From Candidatus Micrarchaeota archaeon (GTDB lineage Archaea; Micrarchaeota; Micrarchaeia; Anstonellales; Bilamarchaeaceae): DNA of 25,758 nucleotides. The notes below the pieces were generated by a model. It had not been told where the DNA came from and did no database searches. It was given only the letters and a program-made list of their open reading frames with translations. Both the position numbers and the translations under genes were made by a program. The DNA lies in assembly GCA_018304385.1 (NCBI GenBank), contig JAGVWJ010000019.1, positions 1-25,758 on the forward strand, written 5' to 3'. Shown here piece by piece: positions 1 through 22,061 of the stretch (position 1 is the first letter of the stretch; every line of letters starts with the position of its first letter).

Positions 1-1680
1 AAAGAAGCAAGGGAAAGATATGCTGCGCTTACAGAAAGAGTAGAACATATTGAAGGCGTTTATTTTGACATGGTTGAATGGGAAAAGAGTATAGGTGTTG
101 AGCATGAAAATCAAATGGGCTGGAATTTCACATGCAGGGAATCGTTTCTTTTACAGTTTCTGAGAGATGAAGAAAGATTAAAATTCCAGGCAGAAATTTT
201 CTTAACAGAAAGAAATCTTAGAATAGCAACAAAGGATGAAAGGATATTAAACGAAGATGAGAGGAGTCAGTATAAGACTCTGCGAAGTCTTTTGTGGATA
301 TTCACTGAAAAGATAGAAGAAGAGATTGCAGCAGGCAGGTTAAGACGCAATGATTTGCCAAAAGATACACTAGCTATATTAGATAAAGTAAAACAAACAC
401 AATTTTATAGGGAAAATTATGAGCTTGTGCATCGCGCACCGACTATATGGGATAAAAAATGGGTAGCTGGATCAGTAGAGGCTTATGATAAAATAGTTGA
501 TTTTCTTTTTCCAGCAACTTATAATTCAATGAAAAGTATTGCTAGTGGTGCAGAAACAGATTCTGCTGCAATGTTTCTAGGTAAGGTAGCATTAACAATG
601 GGCGGCAGCGTTGTTGATGCTGCTTCTTTAGTTTTGCTTAAAGGTGGTGGCCAGGCTGCTGTGCAAACTGGAAAAGTATTCGTAAAGGAGGCTGTAAAAG
701 AAGGTATAAAACAAGCAGCCAAGCAAATTCCAAAAAAGATTGCAGCAACCGTTGCTGAGCGTGGCTTAGCTAGGCTTGCAGTTGGCACTACAGTTAAAGC
801 TGGATTACTAGCATTTCCTTATTATCACAGCTATAAGGAAATGATGACTGTTTTAGATGATGAAAAAGTAAGCAGTACAGACAAGGCATTTGCTGTTGCA
901 AGATTTTTAAAAGAAATCATTATTTTTGAAAGATTGTTTGCAAAAGGACCTGTTGCATTGAAAGAAGCAATTAGAAGATTTAAAGGAGAATTTGCTTTAG
1001 CTAGAGTACTAGAATCGCGATTACTTGCATTAGTTGGCAAAACAAAGCATGCAGATGAGCTAGCAAATGCAGCATTAGAACTTACAAAGATGAAAGATGC
1101 AAAAGCAGCCACTAAATTTTTATCAGATCTTGGAAAACGATTAGGCATTCCTGCATTAGAGAATATTGCAGCTAAAACAGTTGCAAGAATGCTTGATCCA
1201 AGAACAAGAGCAGTTGTTGCGCATGCATCAACAATGGCATTTGCCATGGTATTAACAACTCGCAGTGTAGTTACTGAAACTGCAGTTAATAGAAAGAAAA
1301 AATCAGATGAAGAAATAGCATGGCAAAAGGAATACGGCAAGCTTGCACTGGATGATAAGCAGCAGGTATTGCTTAGTTCTAGCGATTATTTAGCACTGCG
1401 TATATTAGGAAGAGAAGAAAAAGAAGCAGATTTTAGCAAAGAGAATGTAAAGGAATTATTAGAAAAATATGGCAGGTATGTAAAATATTGTCAAGCGCAA
1501 TCAGTGCAAGCACTACCAGTTAGTGATTATTTATATGTTAGATTATATTACCCAGAAACTGAATCAGAACAACTCTTTGCTTATACTAAAGAATATGTAG
1601 AACTATCAGAAGATGCAAAAGGACAAGTAACATTTTCTAACTATGTAAAGTCAATGGAAGTTGCAAGGGCACTACTATAG
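1..1680 (+). CDS. C-terminal part (>559 aa, 5'-truncated by the window) of a large helical protein with Gly/Ala-rich hydrophobic segments; function unknown
   Basis: The frame is open from base 1 (KEARERYAALTERVEHIEGVYFD precedes the track ATG at 70) to TAG at 1678-1680. Hydrophobic stretch AAMFLGKVALTMGGSVVDAASLVLLKGGG at ~565-660 and a second one, VAHASTMAFAMVLTT. Confidence 0.85.
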   Translation, partial: KEARERYAALTERVEHIEGVYFDMVEWEKSIGVEHENQMGWNFTCRESFLLQFLRDEERLKFQAEIFLTERNLRIATKDERILNEDERSQYKTLRSLLWIFTEKIEEEIAAGRLRRNDLPKDTLAILDKVKQTQFYRENYELVHRAPTIWDKKWVAGSVEAYDKIVDFLFPATYNSMKSIASGAETDSAAMFLGKVALTMGGSVVDAASLVLLKGGGQAAVQTGKVFVKEAVKEGIKQAAKQIPKKIAATVAERGLARLAVGTTVKAGLLAFPYYHSYKEMMTVLDDEKVSSTDKAFAVARFLKEIIIFERLFAKGPVALKEAIRRFKGEFALARVLESRLLALVGKTKHADELANAALELTKMKDAKAATKFLSDLGKRLGIPALENIAAKTVARMLDPRTRAVVAHASTMAFAMVLTTRSVVTETAVNRKKKSDEEIAWQKEYGKLALDDKQQVLLSSSDYLALRILGREEKEADFSKENVKELLEKYGRYVKYCQAQSVQALPVSDYLYVRLYYPETESEQLFAYTKEYVELSEDAKGQVTFSNYVKSMEVARALL

Positions 1681-1700: not shown

Positions 1701-2582
1701 CTAAAAATTCATATCTGTTTTTTTAGGGACCTTTTCTTCGTCCTTTTTTAACAAGTAATAAACTGCACCTACTGCAGTCGCAATAACCGCAGCTATAATA
1801 CCTATTTTAACTGGTGTCCCTACTTTTGTAACCTTTTTAACCGGTGCACTTACTTCTCCTGGTGACGCGCCAGCTAAACCTCGTAATTCTTTTATTACTG
1901 CTTCTTCACCGCGTACTAATTCATCCATGCTAGTAGATATTCTTTCCCCAATTCCTTTATTTGCTGTTAATTCTGCTTCGCATTTAGTTATTTGACCTTT
2001 TAGCTGTTTTAATTTTGGATCAAATTCTAGATAATTGCGCACATAATAATAGTAATCTTGATGAGAAAGTCCTGTTACCCTTGTCTCTGCACGAAGTGCA
2101 TCACGTTCTTGCCCATACAAACTTTCTGGAGCGCGCCACACATTCAACATTCTTTCAACATACTCTAACCTGCGCAATTTTTTAACCACATCACCAGTGG
2201 TTCTTTTTTTATGAATATATGAATCATGTGCTTTTTTAGCAAGTTTATTTTCAATATTTTTAGCTGTATCCGTAAGAGTGGCTAACCTTCTTTCAAGTGT
2301 TGGTATTTGTTGTTCTACTTCAGTACGAATAGTTCCCAATGCATTTCTAAATGCTTCAACAGCCTCCTTTGCTCTTTGCCCACTTTTATCCCCTGAGATA
2401 TAACCTGCCATTAGTTGCTTTATTTGTTCTTCATTCGATTTCCCCGCTCTAATTAGATTCTTAATTTCTAGTGCTAATTCGGTTGATCTTCCACTTTTCG
2501 CAAGCTGCATTCCTATTGCAAAATGAGTCTTTGGTTTTTCAGCCTCTTGCGCTGCGAAAAGAAAACCTGGTCTATCTGCCAT
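1701..2582 (-). CDS. Tail-anchored coiled-coil protein, paralogue 1 (293 aa)
   Basis: GGAG SD upstream. Long amphipathic/heptad helices, one C-terminal hydrophobic helix (IGIIAAVIATAVGAVYYLL), basic tail ending KKTDMNF. Confidence 0.85.
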   Translation of the reverse strand: MADRPGFLFAAQEAEKPKTHFAIGMQLAKSGRSTELALEIKNLIRAGKSNEEQIKQLMAGYISGDKSGQRAKEAVEAFRNALGTIRTEVEQQIPTLERRLATLTDTAKNIENKLAKKAHDSYIHKKRTTGDVVKKLRRLEYVERMLNVWRAPESLYGQERDALRAETRVTGLSHQDYYYYVRNYLEFDPKLKQLKGQITKCEAELTANKGIGERISTSMDELVRGEEAVIKELRGLAGASPGEVSAPVKKVTKVGTPVKIGIIAAVIATAVGAVYYLLKKDEEKVPKKTDMNF

Positions 2583-2621
2583 TTAATCTCCGATATTTTG
2601 CGAAATGTGATATATCCAAAC

Positions 2622-3476
2622 TTAGAAATCCACTTCAGGTTTTTTTAGCGGGACTGGAACATTTTTCTTTTCTTCAAATTTATCTAAAAGCTCATTGGTT
2701 ACAAGTGCGCCAGCAGCAACTGCAAAAATTACGCCTGCTGCAACTGCAACTGGCCCCCCTTTAAATTTAAATCCTTTTGCCTCTGCCTCAACAGTTCTGC
2801 CAACTGCTGCTAGTAATGCACTTACTTCTTGAATTACTGGTTTTTCTGCTTTTGCCAATCTTTCTATATTGTTGCCTATCCTGGCGTTTACCTTTCTTAG
2901 TTCTGTGAGTGCCTCTTCACTACTTGCAATGTTCAATCTCAACTGCCCATATTTGGCATCTAAAGCCCTTTTAGCATCTAATCTCCTTGCTAACTCCGCA
3001 TCTAGCGCTTTCCCACTAAATTTTTCTTTTACAAGCTGGCCTTTGACCGCTCCTTCTATTGCTTCTGCCTCTCGCCTAAATTTACTTAAATCTGCTGCAA
3101 TTCTAGATGACCTTCCTTCTACGTTTCTGTTAACTGCCTGCAATGCTGCACCAAGTGCTTTAGCAACATCTATCGCTTTTTCTGGTTTACCCCCAGCATA
3201 TCCAGCAATAAGCTGACGAATTTTAGTTGCATTTGGCCCACCTACAATTTCTATTGTATCTTTTCTTGCTGTATCAAAAAATACCTGCGCACCAGAAGGC
3301 AATCCACCTAAGTGTTGTCTTCCTGTAGTAGTAACATGAATAGTTGCATTTCCAACTAACTTTGCAAGTTCATTTGCCAACCCAGCTACATTTCCATCTC
3401 TGCCAAGTTTCCTTCCTAGTTCAAATGCAGTTTGTGTAGCTTCCCTTCCAAGAAGTCCTAGCTCGAATACGATCAT
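2622..3476 (-). CDS. Tail-anchored coiled-coil protein, paralogue 2 (284 aa)
   Basis: ATG at 3476 is preceded by an AGGTGA SD (the track GTG at 3485 lies inside the SD). C-terminal hydrophobic helix VAVAAGVIFAVAAGALVT, tail ending KKPEVDF. Confidence 0.85.
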   Translation of the reverse strand: MIVFELGLLGREATQTAFELGRKLGRDGNVAGLANELAKLVGNATIHVTTTGRQHLGGLPSGAQVFFDTARKDTIEIVGGPNATKIRQLIAGYAGGKPEKAIDVAKALGAALQAVNRNVEGRSSRIAADLSKFRREAEAIEGAVKGQLVKEKFSGKALDAELARRLDAKRALDAKYGQLRLNIASSEEALTELRKVNARIGNNIERLAKAEKPVIQEVSALLAAVGRTVEAEAKGFKFKGGPVAVAAGVIFAVAAGALVTNELLDKFEEKKNVPVPLKKPEVDF

Positions 3477-3488
3477 TTTTATCACCTT

Positions 3489-4523
3489 TTAGAAATCCAT
3501 TTTTTTCGGGCGCTCTATTTTTTTCGGAACTTGTTTTTCCTCTTCAGGCTTTAGCATATAATAAGCTGCCGCGGCAACTGCAGCTGCTGCAACCGCACCA
3601 AGCATAACAGCAATAGGTTTTCTTCCATGCAATTCTTCTGCGACTGAACCTTTAAGCTGTCTAAGTAGATTTTCAGCACCTTCAAAAACTGGTTTTTTAA
3701 CGCTTTTCAATGCATCTATTCCACGTGATAGTTGTTCGGATACAGATTGGTACTGTATGAAAATCGTCCTTAAACGTTCTGCAGCACTAGAAAATTTTAT
3801 ATAATCTGTATTCGTTCTTAGCCCATCACCTACTAATTTATGATATTCCTTCATAAACGCATCAAAACTTGCAAAACCTTTTTTTCGCACGAGCGCATTC
3901 ATTTCTCTTGATTTTTGGTCGTGTCTTGCAAATGCCTCTCTACCCATTAATGTAAAATCCCTTTCTTCTTTCCATGCAAGAATTTCAGGGGTAATACCTA
4001 ATCTTTGTTGGACTTTCTTCTCAATTTCTTGCTCAACCTTTCTAGCAGCTTGATCAAAGCTCTCTCTTTCTAAGTTTACAAGGCTTAGTTTGTCCTTAAC
4101 ACTTCTTACAGCTGTTTCAAATGCAGTTTGCAATGCTTGTAATGCTTTTGGCCCATTTAATTTAGGATTAGCAGATACAAATCCTCTTACTAAATCTCTT
4201 ATAGCTTGTTCCTGTTCACCGCTGGATTTTTCAAGGAGTTTTATCAAATCCCTTCTTTTTGTATCATCAAATGTAGTACGCCATATATTAGTATCCTCAA
4301 TACGATTATTTGGAAACATCGCTTCCACTCCTAATGCCTTTCTTCCAGTAGTTTCTACTGCTACACTTGGCATTCTACCTTCTGTAACTAATTCTGTTAA
4401 TATTTTGGTAAGTGCTGCTGCTCCATTAGCTCTACGCGCAAGTTCTACGCCTCGCTCGAATGGCCTGATTACTTTGGTTAATTCTGTTTCCCTTCCTAAA
4501 AGACCTGGAACCTGTGCACCCAT
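3489..4523 (-). CDS. Tail-anchored coiled-coil protein, paralogue 3 (344 aa)
   Basis: GGTGA SD. C-terminal hydrophobic helix IAVMLGAVAAAAVAAAAYYML, tail ending PKKMDF. Shares GLLGRE, TTGRxxLG and IxxLxxG[YF] motifs with paralogues 1 and/or 2. Confidence 0.85.
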   Translation of the reverse strand: MGAQVPGLLGRETELTKVIRPFERGVELARRANGAAALTKILTELVTEGRMPSVAVETTGRKALGVEAMFPNNRIEDTNIWRTTFDDTKRRDLIKLLEKSSGEQEQAIRDLVRGFVSANPKLNGPKALQALQTAFETAVRSVKDKLSLVNLERESFDQAARKVEQEIEKKVQQRLGITPEILAWKEERDFTLMGREAFARHDQKSREMNALVRKKGFASFDAFMKEYHKLVGDGLRTNTDYIKFSSAAERLRTIFIQYQSVSEQLSRGIDALKSVKKPVFEGAENLLRQLKGSVAEELHGRKPIAVMLGAVAAAAVAAAAYYMLKPEEEKQVPKKIERPKKMDF

Positions 4524-4541
4524 AACATCACCAACTTCATT

Positions 4542-5093
4542 TTATTCTATTATCGGGTTGATATTTAAATCTATACCAGTTTTAGTTTTTATCTCTCCCT
4601 TTATGGCTTCTATTTTACTTTCTGTATCTAGTATCATAACGCCAATTACCCGAACTAATGCACTGGCGACATGTTCATCCACGCCTCGCAAAGGAGATAT
4701 TCTTAAGTCTAAAATTGTATGCTCTAGCCCTTCTAAAGCAATCACTAATGAATGTAATATTGCAAAAAGTTTTCTTTCAGAAAGAGATGAAATATTTTCA
4801 GGAATTGTTCCTAAAATAGAATTAAGCTGGCTGTATAATCTCTGAACACCTTCTGCATGTTCTAGTTCTGCGGAATTTTGTGCCCTACAATAAGATACTA
4901 TTCCTTGTTTTTTTATTGCTGCCCTAACCCCTTCTAAACATTCTCTATCTACTAAGGTTTTTACCTCTCTTAATGCATCGCTTCCAAAAATAAGCCTTGT
5001 TCTATTTCGCAACTGTTGTAGCTGTTCTCTTGTATGATCAGTTCTTTTTAAACCCAGTGCAGCTCCAATTCTTTGAAACGCCAAACCAGCCAT
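4542..5093 (-). CDS. Hypothetical helical protein (183 aa), possibly a degenerate ferritin-like four-helix bundle; first gene of the operon
   Basis: TTTTTAAA TATA-like box 23-30 nt upstream of ATG 5093 suggests a leaderless start. ExxH motif (AELEHAEGV) and a final helix ILDTESKIEAI. The fold call is weak. Confidence 0.7.
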   Translation of the reverse strand: MAGLAFQRIGAALGLKRTDHTREQLQQLRNRTRLIFGSDALREVKTLVDRECLEGVRAAIKKQGIVSYCRAQNSAELEHAEGVQRLYSQLNSILGTIPENISSLSERKLFAILHSLVIALEGLEHTILDLRISPLRGVDEHVASALVRVIGVMILDTESKIEAIKGEIKTKTGIDLNINPIIE

Positions 5094-5188
5094 TATTATA
5101 TTTAAAAACACACAGTTTAAAAAGGTTGGTAACTAGTTTCTGAAACCATGAAGCAAAACTTTAAAACATTACTTTGAATATTCCTTTT

Positions 5189-5533
5189 ATGTCTGAAGGT
5201 AAATCTAAAACAAAACTGTATGGTAATGAAGTAAAAGCACTTAACAAGAAAATAAAAAACAATCCAGAAGATCCAAATTTCTATTCTGATCGGGGCAAAG
5301 CTTATGCAAAATCTGGTTTCTACGCAGAAGCAATGGAAGATTTTACAAAAGCTGTAGAACTTGATCCTAAATATGTAGATGCTTATAACAACAGAGCACT
5401 GACATGTTACGAGCAAGAAAAGTATGATAAAGCGATAATGGATTTTACAAAGGCAATAGAACTAGATCCAAAAAATGAGAACGCACATAAATTCAGGGAC
5501 GTTTCATATGAGAGATTAAGAAAGAAGAAGTAA
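5189..5533 (+). CDS. TPR-repeat protein (~114 aa)
   Basis: Canonical TPR units: YSDRGKAYAKSGFYAEAMEDFTKAVELDP and YNNRALTCYEQEKYDKAIMDFTKAIELDP. ATG 5189 preferred over TTG 5174. Confidence 0.9.
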   Translation: MSEGKSKTKLYGNEVKALNKKIKNNPEDPNFYSDRGKAYAKSGFYAEAMEDFTKAVELDPKYVDAYNNRALTCYEQEKYDKAIMDFTKAIELDPKNENAHKFRDVSYERLRKKK

Positions 5534-5549
5534 ACCACCATAGTGGGTT

Positions 5550-5795
5550 ATGGACATGAACGCAGAAAAAGAAGCACTGAAAATTGTCAATAATACATTA
5601 TCCTCTATTGAAACAGTTATGAAGGATTGGAAGGCTGCAGACAAAAAAACAAAAAACAAATTTACTGAAAGAATTGAAAGATTGGAAAAATGGCACGCCA
5701 CACTAATGCAATGGAAAAAAGAATTTCTTGCAGCAAAATCTGATCAAAGATACAAACTACTTTTGCAACTACATGAAATAGGCAAGATGACATGA
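5550..5795 (+). CDS. Small helical protein (81 aa), translationally coupled to the giant gene
   Basis: Helix-turn(DWKAAD)-helix pattern. Its stop overlaps the next ATG (ATGA at 5792-5795). Confidence 0.75.
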   Translation: MDMNAEKEALKIVNNTLSSIETVMKDWKAADKKTKNKFTERIERLEKWHATLMQWKKEFLAAKSDQRYKLLLQLHEIGKMT

Positions 5796-8700
5796 GTCTT
5801 AAAGAAAAGCTTGATGAAACTGAACAAAAGGTTTCTGAAGCTAGAAAGATGCTAACTGAGATTAGCAGAACTATACCAACAAGAATGGAAGGCACAGAAA
5901 GAAGAATAGAGTCAGGAATGCAGCAAGCAGAACAACAGATTGAAAATCTTAAACAATTTGCAATCAATCTACCTGTGAATGTACCTGAGGTTTTTAAAAA
6001 AGCAGCAAAGGAAAAGGATATTTTTGAAACTGCATTGGAAGATGTAAGAGGCACTTATACTGATGAGCTAGCAGGTGAATTTGCAAAAACGCGCATACTC
6101 TTGCATGCAGGACAAACACTGTTTAAAGAAGGTCTGCGTCTCGAGAAAGAAGGCAAAACAGAGGAAGCAAGGAAAAAATTCGAACAAGCAGCAGAAAAAT
6201 TTGAAAAAGCAAATGCAATGGCATTTGCACTTAAAACATATGCTGATCTAAAAAGAACCGGTGCATCTCAGGAATTTCTTGATGCTGTAAAAAATGCAGC
6301 CAAGGCGCATATAGAAAACGTAGGTCAGAATAATGTTGAAGGAAAACGCTCCGCGCTTATGCTTCTTGCAGCTAATTCTTACATTGATCTGCATGCTAAC
6401 GGCATGTTTGAACAGGCTGCACTTGCAAAGGATTTTACTATATCGCTAAAAGATAAACCTGCTAAGGAATTCGAAATAGCAAGGGATCAGATTGCAATAT
6501 TGCAAGCAATGACAGGCACAGTTGTGCCAGATGAATTCAGGCAGGAATTTTTAAACAAGCTTGGCATTGCATTCTCATTATATAATACAGTGGATACCAG
6601 CAAGCCAAAAGAAGAGATACAAAAACAGCTTGATAAGGCTGCGTTATTTACTTCAGCTGTTTTGCAGCTAGCAACATATGCAAAAATGCCTCCTGAAATG
6701 CGAGAAAAATTAAAAGCATATGTAGCCTCGCTTTTGCAAGGATTTGAGAGCAATGAGATAACCGAGGCGCTAGTAGCAGAAATAGCATTTCGTTTTTCAC
6801 AAGAAATAGTTAATGATTTACTGACAAGAACAATTGATGGAATGAGATTTCCTAAAGAAATCCAAGAAAAAATAAACAGAATTAGAGAAAATATTAAAGA
6901 CCTCATAGAAAATGGGGAAATAGAACAGGCATTCCAGGCAATTGTTTATCTAAATACATATAGATACGGCGCATATATTGAAGCACCATTTAGGAATGAG
7001 CAGGTGCTCGAGTATGTGACCTTTTTATCCGGGCAGATTGATGAGGAGCACGGAAGAGAGATATTTGAAAGATGCATGCCTGAATTTGAAAAATTAAACA
7101 GATATGTACAAATTTATAAAGAAATAGAAAATACACGAGCACTATTCGCTGAAAGAAAGGCATCATTTGCTGCGCTTGAAAGAAGGGATAGGACTATTTT
7201 TGATTATAACAAACTTGAGCAGCAATTAAATGCAGCATTGGATTTAGCAAAGGCGGGAAATTTTGAACAAGCGATAAATGCTGTTGGTGCTGCGCATGCA
7301 GCATTTGTAGATATAGATAATGCTGCAGTCCAACAAGCAAGACAAATAGCAATTGATACGGATATTGAAGGCCTAGAACATTTTGAAGCACAGATTGCAA
7401 GATATAGAAGAGAGCTAAGTGATAAACATAAGGAATTTGCTCCAAAGATTGCTGGACCAAATCTCTATTCCACTTTAAGTAGTATATCAAACGGCCAACT
7501 GGTAGTGCTTGAGGCACAAATAAGCGTTAGGCTTGAAGAATTACGAAGAATAAGGGCAAATCCAAATGCGCACTATGAAGGAGGCGAAATAATTGCTGCA
7601 AAGGCAAGAATGCAAAAATTTGATGAAATCGTTAGATATACCTCAAGTTGCCTTGATATGTTAGCGCTTATAAATAATCTAGCATCAGACCCAGCGCTTA
7701 AAGAAAACGATCGCAGGAGATTAATTGTAATTGCCGGCTTAGTGCAAAACGCATTGGAAAAAATAGGTGCTGAGCCACCTAATTATGAAAGAACAAAAGA
7801 ACTTTTAGAACAGGCAATAACTGGAATATTTAGTATTGCAAAGGAGAAAACAGAATTAAGCGATGATCTTCTGGATCATATGAGAGACACAAAAATCAAT
7901 GTTCTTCGCAATACGCTGTCTGGTGCTTATTCAAATGAAGAGGCAGATCAGAAAGGAATAAACTACGGGCTCTATATTATAGATGCAAATATAAGTGAGG
8001 CATTAAGAGCAGCATTAACACTACCTGGCGAAGAAAGAAATAATGCAATATACCAGGCAGACTATCATGCTAATCTTTTATATGAGATGATAGAAAGCGC
8101 ACTTGCAAATGAGATTAATGCAAAATTATCTTCTCATGCATTTGAACAATGTATGGAAAGCTTTGAATTATTGCTGCAGGCACGCAGTGAAAGAAATGAG
8201 AGGGCTAAAGGCAGGGCATCGATGTCAATAGTAGAGCTATCAAAAATTCCGTCCTTGCCTATTGATGAACATGCAGGCAGCTTACGTGCTGCAATACAAA
8301 TCCAAACAGAGGCACTGCAGGCTTTAGTTGCGAAAAAAATGGGAGATCACAATGCAAGGCATAGATTGTTTATGCCAACAGAAACTGGTACTGCATTGCT
8401 AACTGATCATAAATTCCAAAGCATTATGGATGATATAGAAGGCAGATATTTTGCTAATGGGGAATTTATTCTGCATGTGCACGCACCATCTACATTCTTT
8501 GCAATGTCAATAAAAGATACTATTAGGGCTGTTCGCGGACTGCGATCGCGCTGGAATATTAGTGACGAAAGAGAGATGCAATATCAATTATTTGATATGC
8601 TTGCTAATAATCTGAATGCGCAGCGCGAATTAGTGGAGTATGCAATAACCGCGAATAGGCTGGGTAGAACCATAACAAGCGAAGAATACGGTACAAAAAT

Positions 8701-11326
8701 TGCAGAGATCATGAGGCCATGCCTAGAAGCAAGACACGCAGTATTAGTAAGAGATGGGGATAGTGAAAATGCTGAAAGATTTGCAAACTATTTAAGAGAT
8801 ATAGATCGAACAAAAGGGGACAAGCTTGCAAACCTTAGAATACAAACTGAGATCGGTGATGCGCTTAATGCATCCGAGCAGCAAGAAATTAGCGGGGAAA
8901 TGTGGCAGCTTGTTACTGATACATTTGGTGGATTAATTCCTGGTTATACTTCAATAACAGAATATGCTAGAACAGGGCGAGTAGGTGGATGGACTATTGT
9001 ACTTGATGCTGCTGCATTTATCCCATTTGCTGCATATGCAGAAGCATATAGCGGAAGAGCAAGGCTTACATTATCAGAACTTACTGGTGCCAGTGGCAGA
9101 TGGGGCACTGCATTAGATTTAAGCGAAAACATATCTGATATAAGTGGGATGGTACTTGGCGGATATTATACTGGATCTACAATATATGATGATGTAAGCA
9201 GAAGAAGACAACTTGGCTTAAGGGCAAACATTGAATTTCAGCAGGCAATGGAGGCATTACAGGCTGGACTACCTGTTTTTCTTTGGGGCGGCATGTATAT
9301 ATCAGATAGATACGCAGGCAGTGGCAGTGCATTAAACAGAGAACTAAATCCTGTTGTTTATATTAATCGATTTTCCAGCAGGGTTGCGCCATATGTTCGC
9401 AGGGCACGCGGCATGGAATGGACACAAGCAGATGCAGCGCTTAGATTTGCTAATGATGAATTTGTTGAGTCTATAAAAACACATGGACTAAAAGGTGATA
9501 ACCCAAATCGCGCGATTAGAAATCTCGCATCAGAGGCAACAGAAGAATCATATCATGCAATAAGAGAGCGTATTGATAGCGGATTAGAAAAACTTGGAGA
9601 GGATGCGCCCCAGGAATTTAGAAGATTGGCAGACGAGCGCATTGAACTTGAGATAGAATTAAGAGAAGCAGCTAAACGGGCAAATGATCTTAGTGGTACT
9701 GAGAAAGATGGTGCAATAGCTGAGGCCAGGGCATTAGTAAATAACTTAGATGAGAATCTAGATAAATGGAAACAAGAGATAAAAAAACTAAGAAACAATG
9801 TAGTATCTGAAGCAATAGCACTTGAAAATGTACCAACTGGTTTTCCAAGTGCAGCAAATGAACAATTCGGCACTGATATGCGTGTGATTGTTCGCGCTGC
9901 AATAGCTGAAGAGGATATGGGCAATGTAATAAACAGCGCGCATGCAAAAGGCGAAATATCCAATGAGGAATGGGCAGCATTTTTTTCTTTGCCAGAAGAC
10001 GTTCGCGCACAGCGCGTTGCAGATGTAATCAACAGACGTTATAGTGACAAGGCTGGATTTCAACCTACCATGGAGATGGATCCAACATTATCAAAACATG
10101 GGGAGAGAACTGCGAGCGCAAGAAGACAAATGGTTGAACGACTAAAACAATTGGAACAAGACATGCATGTACGGTTAGTCGATGAAAGCATGGTTGATCT
10201 TCATAAAATACAAACAATGCATTATGAAATCGGAGGTGCAGAACACACGCGTGCATTGGAGCGTATACGTGAGCAATCTTTTTATGAAAGAATGGATGTA
10301 AAATTAAAGCGATTAATAAATGATCCGCGAACAATTAATCCAGATGCCAAATATGTTGATTACAAACTGCTTGCGCTTTTATCTGACGAGCAAACATTCA
10401 TGCGAGCAGCATCTGATTTTGCAAAAACATACCATGGCGCGGACATTGCAAGCATTGATAAGATCTCGTATCTTGGCGCAGGATGTTTTAATGCTGCTGT
10501 GCGCGTAGATGTTACGCTAGCGAATGGGCAAAAAAAATCAATAGTAATACGCGGCCCTGGTGACGCAAGCCCTGATATTGCGGTGAATAAATTGCTAAGA
10601 GAAGCAGGGGTAAATACGTTTAACAGCAGCGATCGCAATTATGAGGGCGTTGATATGAGTGGTCATAGCACATACATATCTGTCCAAGATTTAATAGAGG
10701 GAAGAAGATTAGAGGATGTATTAGATAGTATACGAACAGGAGCATTAGGCCATCAAGAAATAGAACAACTAGTTAGAGGATATTTTGATAATCTGGCAGT
10801 TGCACATTTCTTTGGCTTAACAGATAATCATGAAGGAAATTTTATGATTATGCCAGATGGAAGCTTTATGCGTTTAGATTATGGGGTGCATATGAGCTAT
10901 GGAAATGGAAATATTGCAATAAACGACCTGGCCAACAGATTTATTGAAGAACAACTCTTGCCAGCAATGGGAAAAACAAAACTAGATGATAACCTAAAGC
11001 AAGCTGCAAGAGAGGCATTTACAAAAAGATGGGAGCAATTGCAGGCAGACAGAAACAAGGTAGAAAGTCTAATGACTGATATAGTAAGCAGAAGGGAATT
11101 ATATACTGGAAATGGGGATAATTCTGGTGCACAAACTTATGATTATAATGGAAATGTTACTGGAAGGAATGGGCTTAGATTAATTACTGATGTGGATATC
11201 CAACGTTTTAGAACAATCAACTCGCAATCAGCAAAAACAATGCTTGGTGACTTAAATGATATTGTTGGAGGGGGAACAAATAGCGGAGCAGTTAGTCCAG
11301 ACGCACCTACTGCACCTATGTTTTAA
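5792..11326 (+). CDS. Giant protein (1844 aa): helical N-terminal region, central hydrophobic pre-toxin-like segment, C-terminal atypical kinase domain; candidate toxin/effector
   Basis: Uninterrupted 5.5-kb ORF, no N-terminal signal peptide. Hydrophobic TDTFGGLIPGY...WTIVLDAAAFIPFAAYA at ~8910-9050. Kinase motifs near the C-terminus. Confidence 0.9.
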   Translation: MSLKEKLDETEQKVSEARKMLTEISRTIPTRMEGTERRIESGMQQAEQQIENLKQFAINLPVNVPEVFKKAAKEKDIFETALEDVRGTYTDELAGEFAKTRILLHAGQTLFKEGLRLEKEGKTEEARKKFEQAAEKFEKANAMAFALKTYADLKRTGASQEFLDAVKNAAKAHIENVGQNNVEGKRSALMLLAANSYIDLHANGMFEQAALAKDFTISLKDKPAKEFEIARDQIAILQAMTGTVVPDEFRQEFLNKLGIAFSLYNTVDTSKPKEEIQKQLDKAALFTSAVLQLATYAKMPPEMREKLKAYVASLLQGFESNEITEALVAEIAFRFSQEIVNDLLTRTIDGMRFPKEIQEKINRIRENIKDLIENGEIEQAFQAIVYLNTYRYGAYIEAPFRNEQVLEYVTFLSGQIDEEHGREIFERCMPEFEKLNRYVQIYKEIENTRALFAERKASFAALERRDRTIFDYNKLEQQLNAALDLAKAGNFEQAINAVGAAHAAFVDIDNAAVQQARQIAIDTDIEGLEHFEAQIARYRRELSDKHKEFAPKIAGPNLYSTLSSISNGQLVVLEAQISVRLEELRRIRANPNAHYEGGEIIAAKARMQKFDEIVRYTSSCLDMLALINNLASDPALKENDRRRLIVIAGLVQNALEKIGAEPPNYERTKELLEQAITGIFSIAKEKTELSDDLLDHMRDTKINVLRNTLSGAYSNEEADQKGINYGLYIIDANISEALRAALTLPGEERNNAIYQADYHANLLYEMIESALANEINAKLSSHAFEQCMESFELLLQARSERNERAKGRASMSIVELSKIPSLPIDEHAGSLRAAIQIQTEALQALVAKKMGDHNARHRLFMPTETGTALLTDHKFQSIMDDIEGRYFANGEFILHVHAPSTFFAMSIKDTIRAVRGLRSRWNISDEREMQYQLFDMLANNLNAQRELVEYAITANRLGRTITSEEYGTKIAEIMRPCLEARHAVLVRDGDSENAERFANYLRDIDRTKGDKLANLRIQTEIGDALNASEQQEISGEMWQLVTDTFGGLIPGYTSITEYARTGRVGGWTIVLDAAAFIPFAAYAEAYSGRARLTLSELTGASGRWGTALDLSENISDISGMVLGGYYTGSTIYDDVSRRRQLGLRANIEFQQAMEALQAGLPVFLWGGMYISDRYAGSGSALNRELNPVVYINRFSSRVAPYVRRARGMEWTQADAALRFANDEFVESIKTHGLKGDNPNRAIRNLASEATEESYHAIRERIDSGLEKLGEDAPQEFRRLADERIELEIELREAAKRANDLSGTEKDGAIAEARALVNNLDENLDKWKQEIKKLRNNVVSEAIALENVPTGFPSAANEQFGTDMRVIVRAAIAEEDMGNVINSAHAKGEISNEEWAAFFSLPEDVRAQRVADVINRRYSDKAGFQPTMEMDPTLSKHGERTASARRQMVERLKQLEQDMHVRLVDESMVDLHKIQTMHYEIGGAEHTRALERIREQSFYERMDVKLKRLINDPRTINPDAKYVDYKLLALLSDEQTFMRAASDFAKTYHGADIASIDKISYLGAGCFNAAVRVDVTLANGQKKSIVIRGPGDASPDIAVNKLLREAGVNTFNSSDRNYEGVDMSGHSTYISVQDLIEGRRLEDVLDSIRTGALGHQEIEQLVRGYFDNLAVAHFFGLTDNHEGNFMIMPDGSFMRLDYGVHMSYGNGNIAINDLANRFIEEQLLPAMGKTKLDDNLKQAAREAFTKRWEQLQADRNKVESLMTDIVSRRELYTGNGDNSGAQTYDYNGNVTGRNGLRLITDVDIQRFRTINSQSAKTMLGDLNDIVGGGTNSGAVSPDAPTAPMF
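10460..10890 (+). other. PI3/PI4-kinase / HipA-like kinase domain within the giant protein (about aa 1557-1700)
   Basis: Gly-rich loop LGAGCFNAAV (10472), beta3 IVIR, helix DIAVNKLLREAGV, catalytic loop AHFFGLTDNHEGNFMI (Asp at 10823; cf. PI3K xILGIGDRHxxNIMV), metal-binding RLDYG (Asp at 10877; cf. HIDFG). Confidence 0.75.
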
Positions 11327-11705
11327 TCGCATTAATTGCACCTTGCCAACTAGGCGGCTTTTTCATCGAACCTTCTAATTCGCTTGCCACGAGCACATTA
11401 ACTGAAATGTTTTTTCCATCTCTTTTATCTATAAATATAAAATAGGTTTGCATACCTGTTGATCTTATATTAACATACCAAGGATCAGATTTCAACCATG
11501 CAGGAATATTTTTCGCACTATAAAATGGATCGTTTTCCATGCCAATTTTTTCATCTGCCTTTTCCCCATACAATGTCAAATAAGGAGTATTACCAACATT
11601 CACCTTTTCTGGTATCTTTAATAACTTGATCAGCGCATCTGGCATTGGCTTTAATGGCAGTACATGCTTTAGCATTTCTATTGCCTGTGATCTAGTAATT
11701 TGCAT
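11316..11705 (-). CDS. Hypothetical protein (129 aa), convergent with and overlapping the giant gene by 11 bp
   Basis: Coding-like composition. TTTATA box ~27 nt upstream of the ATG on the minus strand (leaderless type). Confidence 0.7.
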   Translation of the reverse strand: MQITRSQAIEMLKHVLPLKPMPDALIKLLKIPEKVNVGNTPYLTLYGEKADEKIGMENDPFYSAKNIPAWLKSDPWYVNIRSTGMQTYFIFIDKRDGKNISVNVLVASELEGSMKKPPSWQGAINAIKT

Positions 11706-11975: not shown

Positions 11976-12058
11976 TCTACCTCCCGCTAATTTTTTTATT
12001 TTTGTGCATTATGTTTCGAGTTCTGGTTAAACTACATATGCAACTATAAGTAATGACA

Positions 12059-12066
12059 TTTATAAA
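12059..12066 (+). promoter_or_regulatory. TATA box of the beta-barrel-like gene
   Basis: TTTATAAA 23-30 nt upstream of ATG 12089 and downstream of the track ATG at 12053. Confidence 0.55.
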
Positions 12067-12088
12067 ATGTTACGAAAATATAATGATT

Positions 12089-13237
12089 ATGCAGAAGCTA
12101 GGCATTAGCAATATTGAACCACGCCAAAAAAGTAAACCTAATTTTCTAAAACGTGCAGTTGCAACTGGCATGCTACTTCTTGGAAGTGCAGCACACGCAG
12201 AGGAAAAAGCTGAAAAAATAGAACAAAAACCTCCTATTACCCTCAAAGTTTCATCAATAAGTATGGGCGAAGCAGCAATAAGAAATTATGGAACAGACGC
12301 TTATGCCAAACTTAATGTACGATGGACAACGCTAGGCGAAGGGTTTATGACAAATTGTATAGGCTTAATAAGATGCAACGAACTTTCATTATATGGTCTA
12401 GCTTTTACTTCAAATCTAAGGTGGCTTGGTATAGATTGGCTTAATGTAAAGTTAGGATATTATGAGATTTCAAGTGGTGGCGAGTCTAGGGCGCGTGATG
12501 TGTATCATAAAAGCAAAGTCGAAGAACAAAGGGCTGTTGCTGGCCTGGGCTTTTTACCAATAAATTCAGATGGAGTACTCCTATATTTAGAAGCAGGTGC
12601 TACTATTCCAACAACTTCTGAACGAAGCGCAAGAACCGCAGTAGCAGATGATGTAAAAACAGATACAACAATTGCAAATGAAAGAAGAAATGAACCTGGC
12701 GCAACATGGAGAGCCATGCTTAATTTAGATAAATATGTACATGTATTTCACGAAGGCTCAAGTGATATGTTATTGCCAATGACCGTCTTAATTAACATTG
12801 GTCTACCATGGTGGGCGCTTCCCTGGACTGATAGAGAAATTCCTCCGGCACTCCATCTGAGAGCATACACTTATGAAAGAGCACAAAACCCTCCAGAACA
12901 ACTTGAAAATCGAGTTTTAATAGGAAATGCTGCTATAGATTACCCATTTTTGACCCATGATAAGAAGATGGGTATGGCAATTTATGCTGGCGGCGGGTTA
13001 GACAACACCAATGTGAACGCTGTTCTTTCAGTGCCATTGGGAATTGCGCTAAGATCTTATATTGGAACCATGGTAGCGACTTTTGATCCTCTTTCTGAAG
13101 GTATCAGACTTGTTATTTCACTTGTTATCCCATCAGAACTGTTTGATGGCTTATTCTTTGGGGCTGATGATGTAGCATCTTTTTCTATACCTGGCTATGT
13201 AATAGGAGATATGGATATGTTTATTGGATATAGATAA
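12089..13237 (+). CDS. Secreted beta-rich protein (~382 aa), beta-barrel-like
   Basis: Extended Sec signal ending LLLGSAAHA|EE. Many alternating-hydrophobic strands (AYAKLNVRW, WLNVKLGYYE, AVAGLGFLP, LLYLEAGATI, LHLRAYTYE, MAIYAGGGL). C-terminus DMFIGYR. Coding status is confident; the fold is inferred. Confidence 0.7.
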   Translation: MQKLGISNIEPRQKSKPNFLKRAVATGMLLLGSAAHAEEKAEKIEQKPPITLKVSSISMGEAAIRNYGTDAYAKLNVRWTTLGEGFMTNCIGLIRCNELSLYGLAFTSNLRWLGIDWLNVKLGYYEISSGGESRARDVYHKSKVEEQRAVAGLGFLPINSDGVLLYLEAGATIPTTSERSARTAVADDVKTDTTIANERRNEPGATWRAMLNLDKYVHVFHEGSSDMLLPMTVLINIGLPWWALPWTDREIPPALHLRAYTYERAQNPPEQLENRVLIGNAAIDYPFLTHDKKMGMAIYAGGGLDNTNVNAVLSVPLGIALRSYIGTMVATFDPLSEGIRLVISLVIPSELFDGLFFGADDVASFSIPGYVIGDMDMFIGYR

Positions 13238-19263: not shown

Positions 19264-20598
19264 CTATAATGTTAAAGCACCAGTTTGCTGAGTATATCGC
19301 GCAATGGTTATTAGTCCCCCATTTCTAGTTTTATCCCTTATTATTGCACTTTCTTTTAACATTCTTTGTTTTATCTGTTCTGCAGCGCCAAGATCTGTAT
19401 TAACTATTACTATGTGCGGCGCATCCTTTACACCATTAACTTTGAGCAATGCATATTCTACGCTTGCAATTGCATCACTAGAAATCTCGCCATTAACAGC
19501 ACTCACAGCAAAAAGCTCATTTAATCTTGCATTAAAAACAATGCGCGGGTTGCTGAATCTTCCCAAATCAATCGGATCGCTTACAACTATTGCATGCGCA
19601 TATTGTGCTGGTAGATTATACCCATTATCTTTGGCATATTTTAAGCGAGAAATACCACTTGCACGCAAACTAGCAACAAGATCTGATTCAGGCCCTTCTC
19701 GCAAATTAACAAGTAATTTATCTTCTCCATTTGTAAAGTCAAATAAGCAAGGTGTAACATGTATTCGTTTTTTTACAACTTCTGGGTGTTCTGCAAGCTG
19801 CATTGCTTGATTTATTGTATTGGCTTGATAATCATCATGTGCATGTGATGTGATGTGTCTTCTGTCTACTAGCTCAACAAGCGTATCAACATGCTTGCTA
19901 ACTTTTCCAACATAATGGTCTGCATGCGCATTTGCATCAACTGCACCGCATTTTGCATGACCAATCACAAGCAGCTCTGCACCATCTTTTAGTTTTCTTA
20001 AAGCAGCATCAACCTTAGCTCGTGCAACTGGATTTTTTGGATCATACACATTTCCTGCAACCTGTAAAAATAAAATATTATTGTCAACAAAGTCCCGAAA
20101 TAGCGTTGGGTCGTCGCGTGCATCTGAGCAAATAAGCACTATTGCATCATACTGCTGCACTACCTCAAATGGTTCATGATGGCGTTCGTATTTTTGTCTT
20201 TCTAATCTAAATTCTTCATTACCAAGACGCAATTGCTCGCGAGATTCCTTTAATGTAAGTGGTTGTTGTGCTATTATTTTAGCAGGTAAAATATGTGTCA
20301 TAACCCCTCCCTCCATTAAATCTCTTTTTCCTAATCTTTGTTTATCTCCCCTTGGTCTTACTTCAAGACGAGCATGTCTAAGTGCACCAATAGATAAAAT
20401 CATTTTTTCTGCATCTTGTAGTGCCTTTTCTTCTTTTTTGTTTTTGTATTTGCGTTTTTTTATCTGTTTGTGCAGATCGTAAAGCGTTTTTTCAGGATCT
20501 AGTGTAACACCTGGAATATAATTAATTACGAGTTCGAGCTCAGACAAAAATTGTGGTTCAATTTTTTTTATCTTTATCTTTTTTAATATCTCTTCCAT
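19264..20598 (-). CDS. Beta-class carbonic anhydrase-like protein with one intact and one degenerate domain (444 aa)
   Basis: CSDAR (20116-20130), VAGN and GHAKCG give a complete Cys/His/Cys Zn site. The second domain (ELFAV...ASVEYAL...HIVIV) lacks ligands. ATG 20598 follows GGTGG. Confidence 0.8.
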   Translation of the reverse strand: MEEILKKIKIKKIEPQFLSELELVINYIPGVTLDPEKTLYDLHKQIKKRKYKNKKEEKALQDAEKMILSIGALRHARLEVRPRGDKQRLGKRDLMEGGVMTHILPAKIIAQQPLTLKESREQLRLGNEEFRLERQKYERHHEPFEVVQQYDAIVLICSDARDDPTLFRDFVDNNILFLQVAGNVYDPKNPVARAKVDAALRKLKDGAELLVIGHAKCGAVDANAHADHYVGKVSKHVDTLVELVDRRHITSHAHDDYQANTINQAMQLAEHPEVVKKRIHVTPCLFDFTNGEDKLLVNLREGPESDLVASLRASGISRLKYAKDNGYNLPAQYAHAIVVSDPIDLGRFSNPRIVFNARLNELFAVSAVNGEISSDAIASVEYALLKVNGVKDAPHIVIVNTDLGAAEQIKQRMLKESAIIRDKTRNGGLITIARYTQQTGALTL

Positions 20599-20752
20599 GC
20601 CACCCACCAAGAAAAACTACAAACTTCGTCGTTACAACGGTTTAAAAATGCTCTTAGCCTAAATTAAATTAATTGTGAACGTTCAGTTTAAAATAGGTAT
20701 TGAAATAGGTTTTTAAACACTTTGGGACACATATATAATACAATAAGAAATA

Positions 20753-20888
20753 CAGAGCGACTGAAGGAACATAAGAGATACATCGAACTGCAGACGTGGC
20801 ATGAGAGAAACAATATACCACGTCACTATAGAGAAAATAAGTAGTACGACGCTTTCATTATAATGATAAAACCGGAGGATGACATAGC
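20753..20888 (+). repeat. Dispersed structured element, copy C, forming the leader of the second beta-CA-like gene
   Basis: CATAAG(20770-75)-N17-GACGTGG(20793-99)-N18-CCACGTC(20818-24)-ACTATAGAG..GTAGTACGAC(20841-50)-N38-ATG(20889). Confidence 0.85.
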
Positions 20889-22061
20889 ATGGGTGCCTCA
20901 GCCTTAAGTGGATTGGATGTTAGAAGTCGGATAAGACAAGCAGAGACATTGACTATTCCTGAGTCTTGTAGTGTTCTTACTGAAGGTTTTATGGGGTTTC
21001 AAAGCAGGGATCGCCCGTCTTCTCTAAGCGGCGTGAGCTTTATTAGAATTGCTGGCCAGGCAGTTGGATTAGATAATGAAAATTCTAGAACAGAGATAAG
21101 AAGAATGCTAGATAAGATAAAACCTAATGGTGTTTTCTTAGTTCTTGGACACGGGGGCATTTTTCCATGTGGGGCAGTAGCAGCTAAGAAAGCTGCATTA
21201 GAGCTTGCAACTCGTGGTGAATTGCTTCAAGAACACCCGCTTGTATTAGAACTTGTTAAGCATGTATCTGAAGATGTTGCTGGAAGGGGATCACCCACAG
21301 CTGAATTTATGAATGCATGTTATCAGGCAAGAAAGATCTTACGTGATGATGAGTTTAACGAAATAATTAGGAGAAAAAACCTAACAGTTACGGCTGTGAT
21401 TATGGCAGATGATAAGCCACTAAGCTATGTTGTGCTAAATAAAGAGTGGGGATTTGATGAATTATTTAGAAATCACCCAAAATTAGTTAAATTAAGTGCA
21501 CAAATGGCAAAGGGTCTTAGAAAGATAATAAAAAAGGGTATTGACATTAGTTCTCATTATGCACATGCAATATTTGTTTATGACCCGTTCCGTATAAGAA
21601 CAATACTCGATCCAAGAGAAGAACTTCTGGATGTTGGAGGCATTTCTTGTGTTGACGCAAGGCTAAAACCAAACACACCAGACTGCCCAAAACATCTTTT
21701 TAAACTAGATCCAAATGAATCATTTGCAGTGACTGTTGAGCTTAATGGATCAGTAAACTTTTCATTTGATGATTTAGGTTCAATTATATACGCATTACAC
21801 CATGTTAAAGGAGTAAATAGTTTAAGCAGAAATGGAAATGCTGGAAATGGACATATTGTTTGCTTAGATACTTCTATTGATGCGGCTGTTGCAATTAAAT
21901 TAGCTTTATTAGGTGAGGACGCAATAAGAACTGGAACGATTGAAGGAAGAACAATAACTACTGCAGCATTTAATGGTAAACGCTTACTTATAGATAATAA
22001 AGAGCATGGAATTGAAATAAATTTAGAGTATTCACCAAGAGTAGATATACTAACAGCCTAA
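20889..22061 (+). CDS. Divergent two-domain beta-carbonic-anhydrase-like paralogue (390 aa)
   Basis: Shares IAG, GH..CGAV, YAHAI and SxxYAL with the neighbouring gene. The N-domain lacks CxDxR; CVDAR sits in an insertion of the C-domain (21648-21662). Confidence 0.7.
   Translation: MGASALSGLDVRSRIRQAETLTIPESCSVLTEGFMGFQSRDRPSSLSGVSFIRIAGQAVGLDNENSRTEIRRMLDKIKPNGVFLVLGHGGIFPCGAVAAKKAALELATRGELLQEHPLVLELVKHVSEDVAGRGSPTAEFMNACYQARKILRDDEFNEIIRRKNLTVTAVIMADDKPLSYVVLNKEWGFDELFRNHPKLVKLSAQMAKGLRKIIKKGIDISSHYAHAIFVYDPFRIRTILDPREELLDVGGISCVDARLKPNTPDCPKHLFKLDPNESFAVTVELNGSVNFSFDDLGSIIYALHHVKGVNSLSRNGNAGNGHIVCLDTSIDAAVAIKLALLGEDAIRTGTIEGRTITTAAFNGKRLLIDNKEHGIEINLEYSPRVDILTA

Follow-up and report, generated by a model that had tools for sequence, protein, structure and literature searches.

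Three adjacent genes on the minus strand of contig JAGVWJ010000019.1 (25,758 nucleotides, referred to below as the window), from the 1.53-Mb, 89% complete genome of a DPANN archaeon (Candidatus Micrarchaeota; assembly GCA_018304385.1, designated G000), raise the question of what kind of membrane system is encoded by a run of coiled-coil proteins that each end in a hydrophobic helix. In line with this placement, the aIF2-gamma encoded in the window has its best matches in Candidatus Micrarchaeota (77% and 63%), the other 37 of 39 loci being at 43 to 54%. The initial annotation had compared the three products to syntaxin-type SNAREs and to translocon or pore components. On the evidence of sequence comparisons and structure models, the proteins, designated A, B, and C, belong to a family of predicted tail-anchored proteins that is unnamed, fast-changing, and narrow in distribution.

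That the three genes are tandem paralogues was borne out. A (293 amino acids [aa]; positions 1701 to 2582), B (284 aa; 2622 to 3476), and C (344 aa; 3489 to 4523) are co-directional open reading frames (ORFs) with gaps of 39 nucleotides (nt) between A and B and 12 nt between B and C. Ribosome-binding-like GGAG or GGTG sites precede all three starts; B has an alternative start, a GTG at position 3485 (287 aa), in addition to the ATG behind a GGTGA site that gives 284 aa. Pairwise BLASTP alignment gave 26% identity for A and B (E = 4e-10), 22% for A and C (E = 3e-4), and 27% for B and C (E = 2e-11), and when all 3,764 ORFs of the genome were searched with phmmer, A, B, C, and one further copy outranked all else. 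The motifs listed in the initial annotation were found in the alignment; the third is weaker in C. A scan for sigma-70-type promoters, whose consensus is unsuited to archaea, gave matches at chance level. The stretch with A, B, and C is not an assembly artefact, because the assembly of a second sample, which covers most of the window, agrees with it (one differing letter among the listed pieces).

The copies do not form a set of exactly three, as had been supposed. The genome has six: besides A, B, and C, a fourth is located where contig C20 ends, and contigs C39 and C23 each carry a solitary copy. Database protein P0023 is 100% identical both to the start of the window, which holds a piece of a gene designated E, and to the end of C20, and the two contigs therefore adjoin. 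The gene order across the join is a DedA/VTT gene, a 355-aa paralogue (minus strand), E (plus strand), and then A, B, C, and a gene designated D (all minus strand). The window carries the C-terminal 559 aa of E, a helical orphan of ∼745 aa (1 to 1680, plus strand) that converges on A. Thus, the fourth island copy lies across E from the other three, and the four copies flank E; the solitary copies sit away from it. In a rough census based on simple in-house gene calls, the six copies account for 6 of the 24 tail-anchored-like proteins of the genome.

A profile search of 1.84 billion representatives (E ≤ 0.001) gave 17 hits, consisting of six copies or fragments from G000 and a 75% complete congener (G002), nine new members, and two proteins (P0016 and P0017) that were discarded because they matched through low complexity or a generic coiled coil. 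In total, 17 members were compiled. Clear matches were found in 2 of 176 genomes of the order, both of the same genus, with no additional clear match in a 401-genome sample of the class. Partial matches in G120 and G027 (E = 2e-4 and 4e-4; ∼85 residues) were excluded from the member count, and locus scans of genome and metagenome contigs found no relatives, with no RNA holder listed. No family of Pfam, NCBIfam, or PHROG fits: the comparison gave scattered weak coiled-coil hits, and no single family was hit by more than 2 of the 17 members at E ≤ 0.01. Fused longer forms were absent from 7,999 candidates, which is weak evidence. Literature searches, which did not extend to supplements in which unnamed Micrarchaeota families may be tabulated, returned no paper on the family.

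The initial reading of the membrane topology was supported by prediction. A, B, and C each have one C-terminal Ala-rich membrane helix, at residues 260 to 278 of A (positions 1749 to 1805), 241 to 259 of B (2700 to 2756), and 304 to 322 of C (3558 to 3614), all on the minus strand. Kyte-Doolittle-style hydropathy of these 19-residue segments (KD19) is 2.27, 2.21, and 1.99, respectively (2.0 to 2.3 when rounded), and no other segment exceeds 0.93; none of the three has an N-terminal hydrophobic helix, in agreement with the reported lack of a signal peptide. A single C-terminal hydrophobic helix is present in 17/17 members (KD19, 1.7 to 2.6; second-best segment, ≤1.05). Net charge is positive before the helix in 15/17 members and zero or negative after it in 15/17, as illustrated by A (+4 in the preceding 15 residues) and B (+2 before and −3 after). 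Hydropathy and flanking charge therefore predict a cytoplasm-facing body for the family, and the gene spacing is operon-like. The membrane helices have a median Ala content of 37%, compared to 10.5% among 957 other membrane segments encoded in the genome, and every one of the 17 reaches or exceeds the 95th percentile for the genome. The archaeon has a gene for an EMC3/TMCO1-type insertase (PF01956); Get3/ArsA was not found in the 89% of the genome that is available. A C-terminal tail motif, considered as a general export signal, was rejected because it is carried by the four island copies only.

The location of the hydrophobic helix also bears on whether the three proteins could be a tripartite alpha-pore-forming toxin of the ClyA/Hbl/Nhe/Ahl type. 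Three tandem paralogues of 280 to 350 aa with an Ala/Gly-rich hydrophobic helix would suit such a toxin, and Mak, Smh, Ahl, and Xax chains were among the Foldseek rows. However, these rows were weak and poorly superposed (E = 0.11 to 0.9; template modelling [TM] score by query, 0.12 to 0.29). ClyA-type pore formers have a hydrophobic head in mid-chain, as a beta-tongue or a helical hairpin, whereas the only hydrophobic segment of the family is C-terminal, with none at the tip or mid-chain in any of the 17 members, and no fixed trio recurs across genomes. It therefore seems very unlikely that A, B, and C form a toxin of this type.

AlphaFold2 models of C and B, built from 17-row alignments, had mean predicted local distance difference test (pLDDT) values of ∼73 (73.2 and 73.5, respectively) and predicted TM scores (pTM) of 0.58 and 0.61. 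The two models agree on a layout that begins with 12 to 17 unstructured residues (pLDDT < 50 for residues 1 to 17 of C and 1 to 12 of B), two short helices, and an optional beta-hairpin insert, which A lacks. These are followed by the conserved IRxLxAGY helix and by two long helices, one outgoing and one returning, on either side of a variable tip, and the chain continues with a short strand at a conserved PV, one more helix, and the low-confidence membrane helix, behind which is a short charged tail. The predicted layout is thus a compact base with an intramolecular antiparallel hairpin. The coiled-coil stalk of C is modeled as helices 120 to 175 and 239 to 273 with the variable tip between them (3705 to 4166, minus strand). 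Between two conserved anchor columns, the stalk ranges from 32 to 171 residues across members, and in P0011 (198 aa; stalk, 32 aa) the hairpin is almost gone.

Structural alignments of the models are confined almost entirely to the two long helices, which they match to hairpins of two helices. The best rows for C were 5vo5 (Z = 11.8; root-mean-square deviation [rmsd], 7.9; 103 residues aligned) and 5fd9 (Z = 11.1; rmsd, 5.8; 96 aligned), both Snf7/Shrub chains, and the best row for B was 8glv (Z = 10.7; rmsd, 2.7; 98 aligned). These rows were tied with Rad50, SMC, prefoldin, IpaB, and designed proteins, at Z values in the range of common helical arrangements. Foldseek searches of PDB (C and B models) and BFVD (B model) yielded nothing at E ≤ 0.001, with the N-terminal base barely covered. 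In the ESM Atlas, the top feature score was 0.88 with TM scores of ≤0.39 for B, and there was no usable match for P0011, blanks in this resource being uninformative on novelty or absence. The best PDB sequence match of the family profile was a designed coiled coil (E = 0.0026). Prediction of an A+C+B complex with alignments scored 0.00 in both runs (mark, 0.32; controls were not folded), a result that speaks neither for nor against binding.

The Snf7/Shrub hairpins at the top of the rows for C would be expected if the proteins were PspA/ESCRT-III-like structural tethers or membrane shapers of the archaeon's own envelope. PspA and Vipp1 start with a membrane-inserting G-L-F motif at the N terminus, which the short N-terminal tag of the family, described below, recalls. 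In the comparison with PspA/ESCRT-III proposed in the initial annotation, the likeness (Z = 8.5 to 11.8) extends over the hairpin only, and unrelated hairpins, including those of Rad50 and SMC, score equally; the length of the stalk is not conserved. The near loss of the hairpin in P0011 and the accessory nature of the family, of which a search of one close congener's genome found no member, argue against a role in shaping the envelope, and we consider such a role quite unlikely. No translocator family of type III secretion systems was among the Pfam or NCBIfam hits of the 17 members at E ≤ 0.01. The N-terminal coiled coil of IpaB (3u0c; Z = 9.3; rmsd, 5.9; 100 aligned) was a generic hairpin among many ties.

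Are the proteins SNARE-like? A tail anchor, a cytoplasm-facing helical body, a suitable size, and three copies in a row are what would be expected of syntaxin-like fusogens that zipper into a parallel bundle beside their anchors. SNAREs have a motif of ∼60 residues with a nearly invariant central Q/R and a short linker to the anchor, as outlined in Neveu et al., where prototypic SNAREs of Heimdallarchaeota are treated (bioRxiv 10.1101/810531). The family has no uninterrupted motif of this kind beside its anchor. In both models, the long helices form an intrachain antiparallel hairpin rather than one extended helix, and the long helix ends, with a visible break, 25 to 41 residues ahead of the membrane helix. 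A proline lies within the 65 residues before the membrane helix in 16/17 members. The 17-row alignment has no invariant or nearly invariant Q/R column, its invariant positions being M1 and one Gly, and none of the six copies matched the SNARE profile PF05739 at E ≤ 1. No SNARE chain was among the best 50 structural rows of either model, and a viral syntaxin appeared only at rank 36 for the B model in BFVD (TM score, 0.16); such absences do not exclude a fold. The N-terminal part, where syntaxins have a three-helix Habc domain, is helical with an optional beta-hairpin and was barely covered by the fold searches. The SNARE-like proteins mentioned in PMC11329633 belong to the Metallosphaera host. 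Membership in the SNAREs is thus largely refuted, the likeness being limited to the tail anchor and size, and fusion by SNARE-type zippering is highly improbable. In both genomes in which the island was read as DNA, it follows a DedA/VTT-domain gene (C20:94241-94762 in G000). An older name of the DedA/VTT family mentions SNAREs; this setting does not support the SNARE idea.

Comparison between species bears on whether the copies are fixed subunits. C is 64 to 65% identical to P0002 and P0022 of another lineage. In the family tree, good support was obtained for only 5 of the 14 inner branches; C clusters with P0002, a 263-aa copy of G002, and the solitary copy on C39 (support, 98/98). Both islands read as DNA (G000 and G002) contain one member of this C clade (98/98) together with other members, neither G002 copy is orthologous to A or B, and the islands have four and two copies of the family, respectively. 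The gene tree and these copy numbers weaken the fixed three-subunit complex, and a fixed SNARE-like trio is unsupported because copy number and identity differ between species.

The conserved companion of the island copies is E, which has Gly/Ala-rich, mildly hydrophobic central helices and is 69 to 82% identical to E of two other lineages. E had no Pfam match at E ≤ 0.05, and its best match among PDB sequences was at E = 0.16. In G002, the DedA gene is followed by E, a 348-aa member, D, the 263-aa member, a small gene, and a gene for a giant protein. Identity between G000 and G002 is 63 to 92% for housekeeping genes, 69 to 73% for E, 50% for D, and at most 36% for the family. For a homologue of E (P0024) and for the members P0011 and P0022, the longest contig listed is 13,977 bp, and for two other members it is 3,819 bp, which suggests further linked loci. 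Linkage of the family to E is therefore shown in two genomes and indicated in a third. In congener G001 (92% complete), the family, E, and the giant were not found and DedA is in another setting; D was not found in 1.17 Mb of this genome. The island with E, D, and the giant is thus accessory. D, a 183-aa helical orphan (4542 to 5093, minus strand), is the first gene of the D-C-B-A run and ends 18 nt before C. D and E were considered as remote paralogues of the family and rejected (probability of 0.3% for D in comparison with the family profile).

Beyond D lie a small TPR protein (5174 to 5533, plus strand; TPR_1, E = 1e-20), which has no counterpart at the G002 locus, and the giant, of 1,844 aa (5792 to 11326, plus strand). 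The C-terminal region of the giant is kinase-like (ABC1 kinase-like, E = 1.6e-4, under the Pfam cut-off), with a catalytic motif that we take to resemble those of HipA/PI3K-type kinases. Residues 1359 to 1821 match giants of G012 (35%) and G011 (30%), which match in this kinase-like end only and join it to different N-terminal parts, and residues 11 to 657 match G002 (34%). A 129-aa gene (11316 to 11705, minus strand) converges on the giant as an immunity-like partner; a homologue of it converges on the giant of G012 (28%, E = 1e-9), and in the G002 island another homologue (E = 9e-5) is found upstream of the giant. By their sequences and arrangement, the giant and the 129-aa gene look like a polymorphic toxin system of DPANN archaea that has both cognate and orphan immunity genes.

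This setting makes it conceivable that the family is itself a homogeneous immunity array, in which each copy, in the archaeon's own inner membrane, neutralizes a variant of a membrane-active toxin (E or relatives of E in competitors) and the solitary copies are orphan immunity genes. Homogeneous polyimmunity loci are described by Zhang et al. 2012 (PMC3482391), and the tandem, co-directional, distant paralogues, 12 to 39 nt apart and differing in number between relatives, fit such loci. The tandem genes are convergent with E, like the 129-aa gene with the giant, and the presence of the EMC3/TMCO1-type insertase is compatible with this reading. However, E is a putative toxin only and is far more conserved (69 to 73% to G002) than family pairs (≤36%). 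Furthermore, the island copies stand on both sides of E, whereas polyimmunity loci are described as uninterrupted by toxin genes (PMC3482391). Immunity is an unlikely function on balance, although one to be taken seriously.

The N termini suggested a different possibility. A G-[LI]-[AL]-[FG]-R-like pattern occurs in the first 16 residues of 14/17 members, including C (4491 to 4505, within the low-confidence N terminus), B (3444 to 3458), and A (2553 to 2567), and by pattern match also in D (5073 to 5087), all on the minus strand. A profile of this tag also picks five unrelated Arg-rich orphans of the genome, starting with M-(x)-G-[LT]-x-F-[RQ] (C12:18529-19530, C21:6411-6773, C57:17595-17999, C39:13440-13907, and D at 4542 to 5093 of the window). 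The frequency among Arg-rich proteins was 5/265, compared to 0.25 proteins expected, and among other proteins it was 0/880, compared to 0.62 expected; the profile and the Arg threshold were set after viewing the data. Synonymous codons of the tag vary among genes, and an upstream DNA cassette as its source was rejected, as no shared DNA was seen by eye at 14 gene starts. The tag is a lead for an export signal, judged from sequence. If it is one, the proteins might be independent effectors that are delivered to the host cell, anchor from inside, and bind host proteins through their arms, with no joint complex. Chlamydial Inc proteins and coiled-coil effectors of Legionella would be working analogues. 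Tag enrichment in Arg-rich orphans with differing synonymous codons, the solitary copies, and fast turnover favor such effectors. However, in addition to the post hoc choice of profile and threshold, the tag was not replicated elsewhere: it was absent from 187 Arg-rich proteins of G001 (1.17 Mb), none of 13 pattern matches in G002 was at the start of an orphan gene, and across the order 47 of the 150 matches listed were in frame, compared to 50 expected (44 more matches lie beyond those listed). Independent effectors are accordingly a doubtful explanation, yet not a negligible one. About 265 proteins of G000, many of which look like orphans, have R/(R+K) > 0.45 and no hydrophobic N terminus. 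In this class, the first 20 residues contain more Arg and Gln (1.5-fold) and less Asp/Glu than the interiors, unlike in the Lys-rich class, and it is possible that such N termini are a diffuse export signal.

The reading that we favor, with a probability of roughly 0.38, is that the copies are interchangeable membrane subunits that pack via their Ala-rich helices and that, together with E, constitute a contact, pore, or translocon apparatus. The copies, as interchangeable rather than fixed subunits, would insert by their tails with the body facing a cytoplasm and pack side by side through the Ala-rich helices. The Gly/Ala-rich helices of E would be a conditional membrane-inserting unit, and from the copies and E a pore- or translocon-like apparatus for cell contact could be assembled, which would either assist in delivering cargo of the island, for example the kinase-tipped giant, or draw on the host. 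Reach or choice of partner would depend on the variable arm, the part that duplication and loss continually renew. The site of action could be the archaeon's own membrane or, after export, that of the target. Such an apparatus is supported by the single C-terminal helix in all 17 members, the Ala-rich anchor, the shared hairpin layout, and the syntenic island, as well as by the indicated third E-linked locus, the presence of a C-clade member in both islands, and the polymorphic-toxin-like giant. The mechanism rests on context. Of the proposal of a hetero-oligomer at membranes or the host junction, a membrane role in cell contact survives as the best reading, and the fixed trio is the part that was weakened.

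Several observations weigh against this apparatus. The membrane helix and tail have pLDDT values of <50 in both models, and E has no segment above a KD19 of 1.35. The third E-family locus is inferred from the 13,977-bp records, not from DNA sequence, and comparison at the DNA level covers two genomes only. The 263-aa copy of G002 is sister to the solitary C39 copy (96/91), not to A, B, or C, and the solitary C39 and C23 copies are located among unrelated genes.

The solitary C23 member (C23:45263-47399) lies between two LemA genes that are 61% identical to each other, followed by a gene that is presumably HtpX-like. A link between the family and LemA (2etd, E = 0.064) was rejected (profile comparison probability, 0.2%). 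The same contig has at least six orphan proteins of 840 to 1,555 aa (C23:951-40660). Elsewhere in the window, two divergent genes of 448 and 390 aa (19264 to 22061) have similarity to Pro_CA (E = 3e-13 and a weak E = 0.009), and both of these beta-carbonic-anhydrase-like proteins exceed single-domain size. A 382- to 394-aa orphan (12053 to 13237) with a signal-like N terminus and an alternating beta-strand-like pattern is possibly an outer-membrane barrel.

A bolder proposal, which we regard as unlikely, is an undescribed DPANN injection or feeding apparatus. E and a variable set of tail-anchored hairpins would form a translocon or nutrient pore in the host membrane, the tag, shared with unrelated cargo, would address export, and the arms would be renewed by duplication for changing hosts. 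The molecular basis of DPANN attachment, injection, or feeding is described as largely unknown in PMC11329633, and, if this proposal is true, the locus would provide named molecular candidates for the unexplained junction between DPANN archaea and their hosts. A small, expressible, quickly turning-over family linked to one conserved partner offers concrete parts for testing DPANN contact. The link to SNAREs fails, and the narrow range (2/176 genomes of the order) limits generality.

Among known systems, syntaxin-type SNAREs resemble the family in tail anchor, cytoplasm-facing body, N-terminal helical domain, and similar size; their motif is joined to the anchor by a short linker, whereas the family's hairpin is of free length and ends 25 to 41 residues earlier. 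PspA, Vipp1, and ESCRT-III proteins share an antiparallel helical hairpin and a short hydrophobic N-terminal motif, but the family has in addition a domain of ∼100 residues before the hairpin, freedom in hairpin length, and the C-terminal membrane helix. Members of the ClyA family (Ahl, Smh, and Mak, and bipartite Xax/Yax) likewise occur as tandem paralogues, each ∼300 aa in size and with long helices as its framework, but their hydrophobic element is in a mid-chain head rather than in a C-terminal tail. The type III translocators IpaB/IpaC and YopB/YopD are coiled coils with membrane helices rich in small residues, and their genes lie with that of a larger partner and close to one for a TPR protein. 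By functional analogy only, a coiled coil, a small-residue-rich helix, a larger partner, and a nearby TPR gene are found here as well; the differences are the lack of a sequence match, the variable copy number, and a TPR gene that is not conserved at the G002 locus. Polyimmunity loci are alike in their tandem, co-directional, distant paralogues of variable number with short gaps and in the toxin-like giant with a convergent partner nearby, and differ in that the family has no named immunity match in Pfam/NCBIfam and its copies flank E. Although the family is unnamed, variable paralogue arrays in conflict islands are an already known kind of arrangement.

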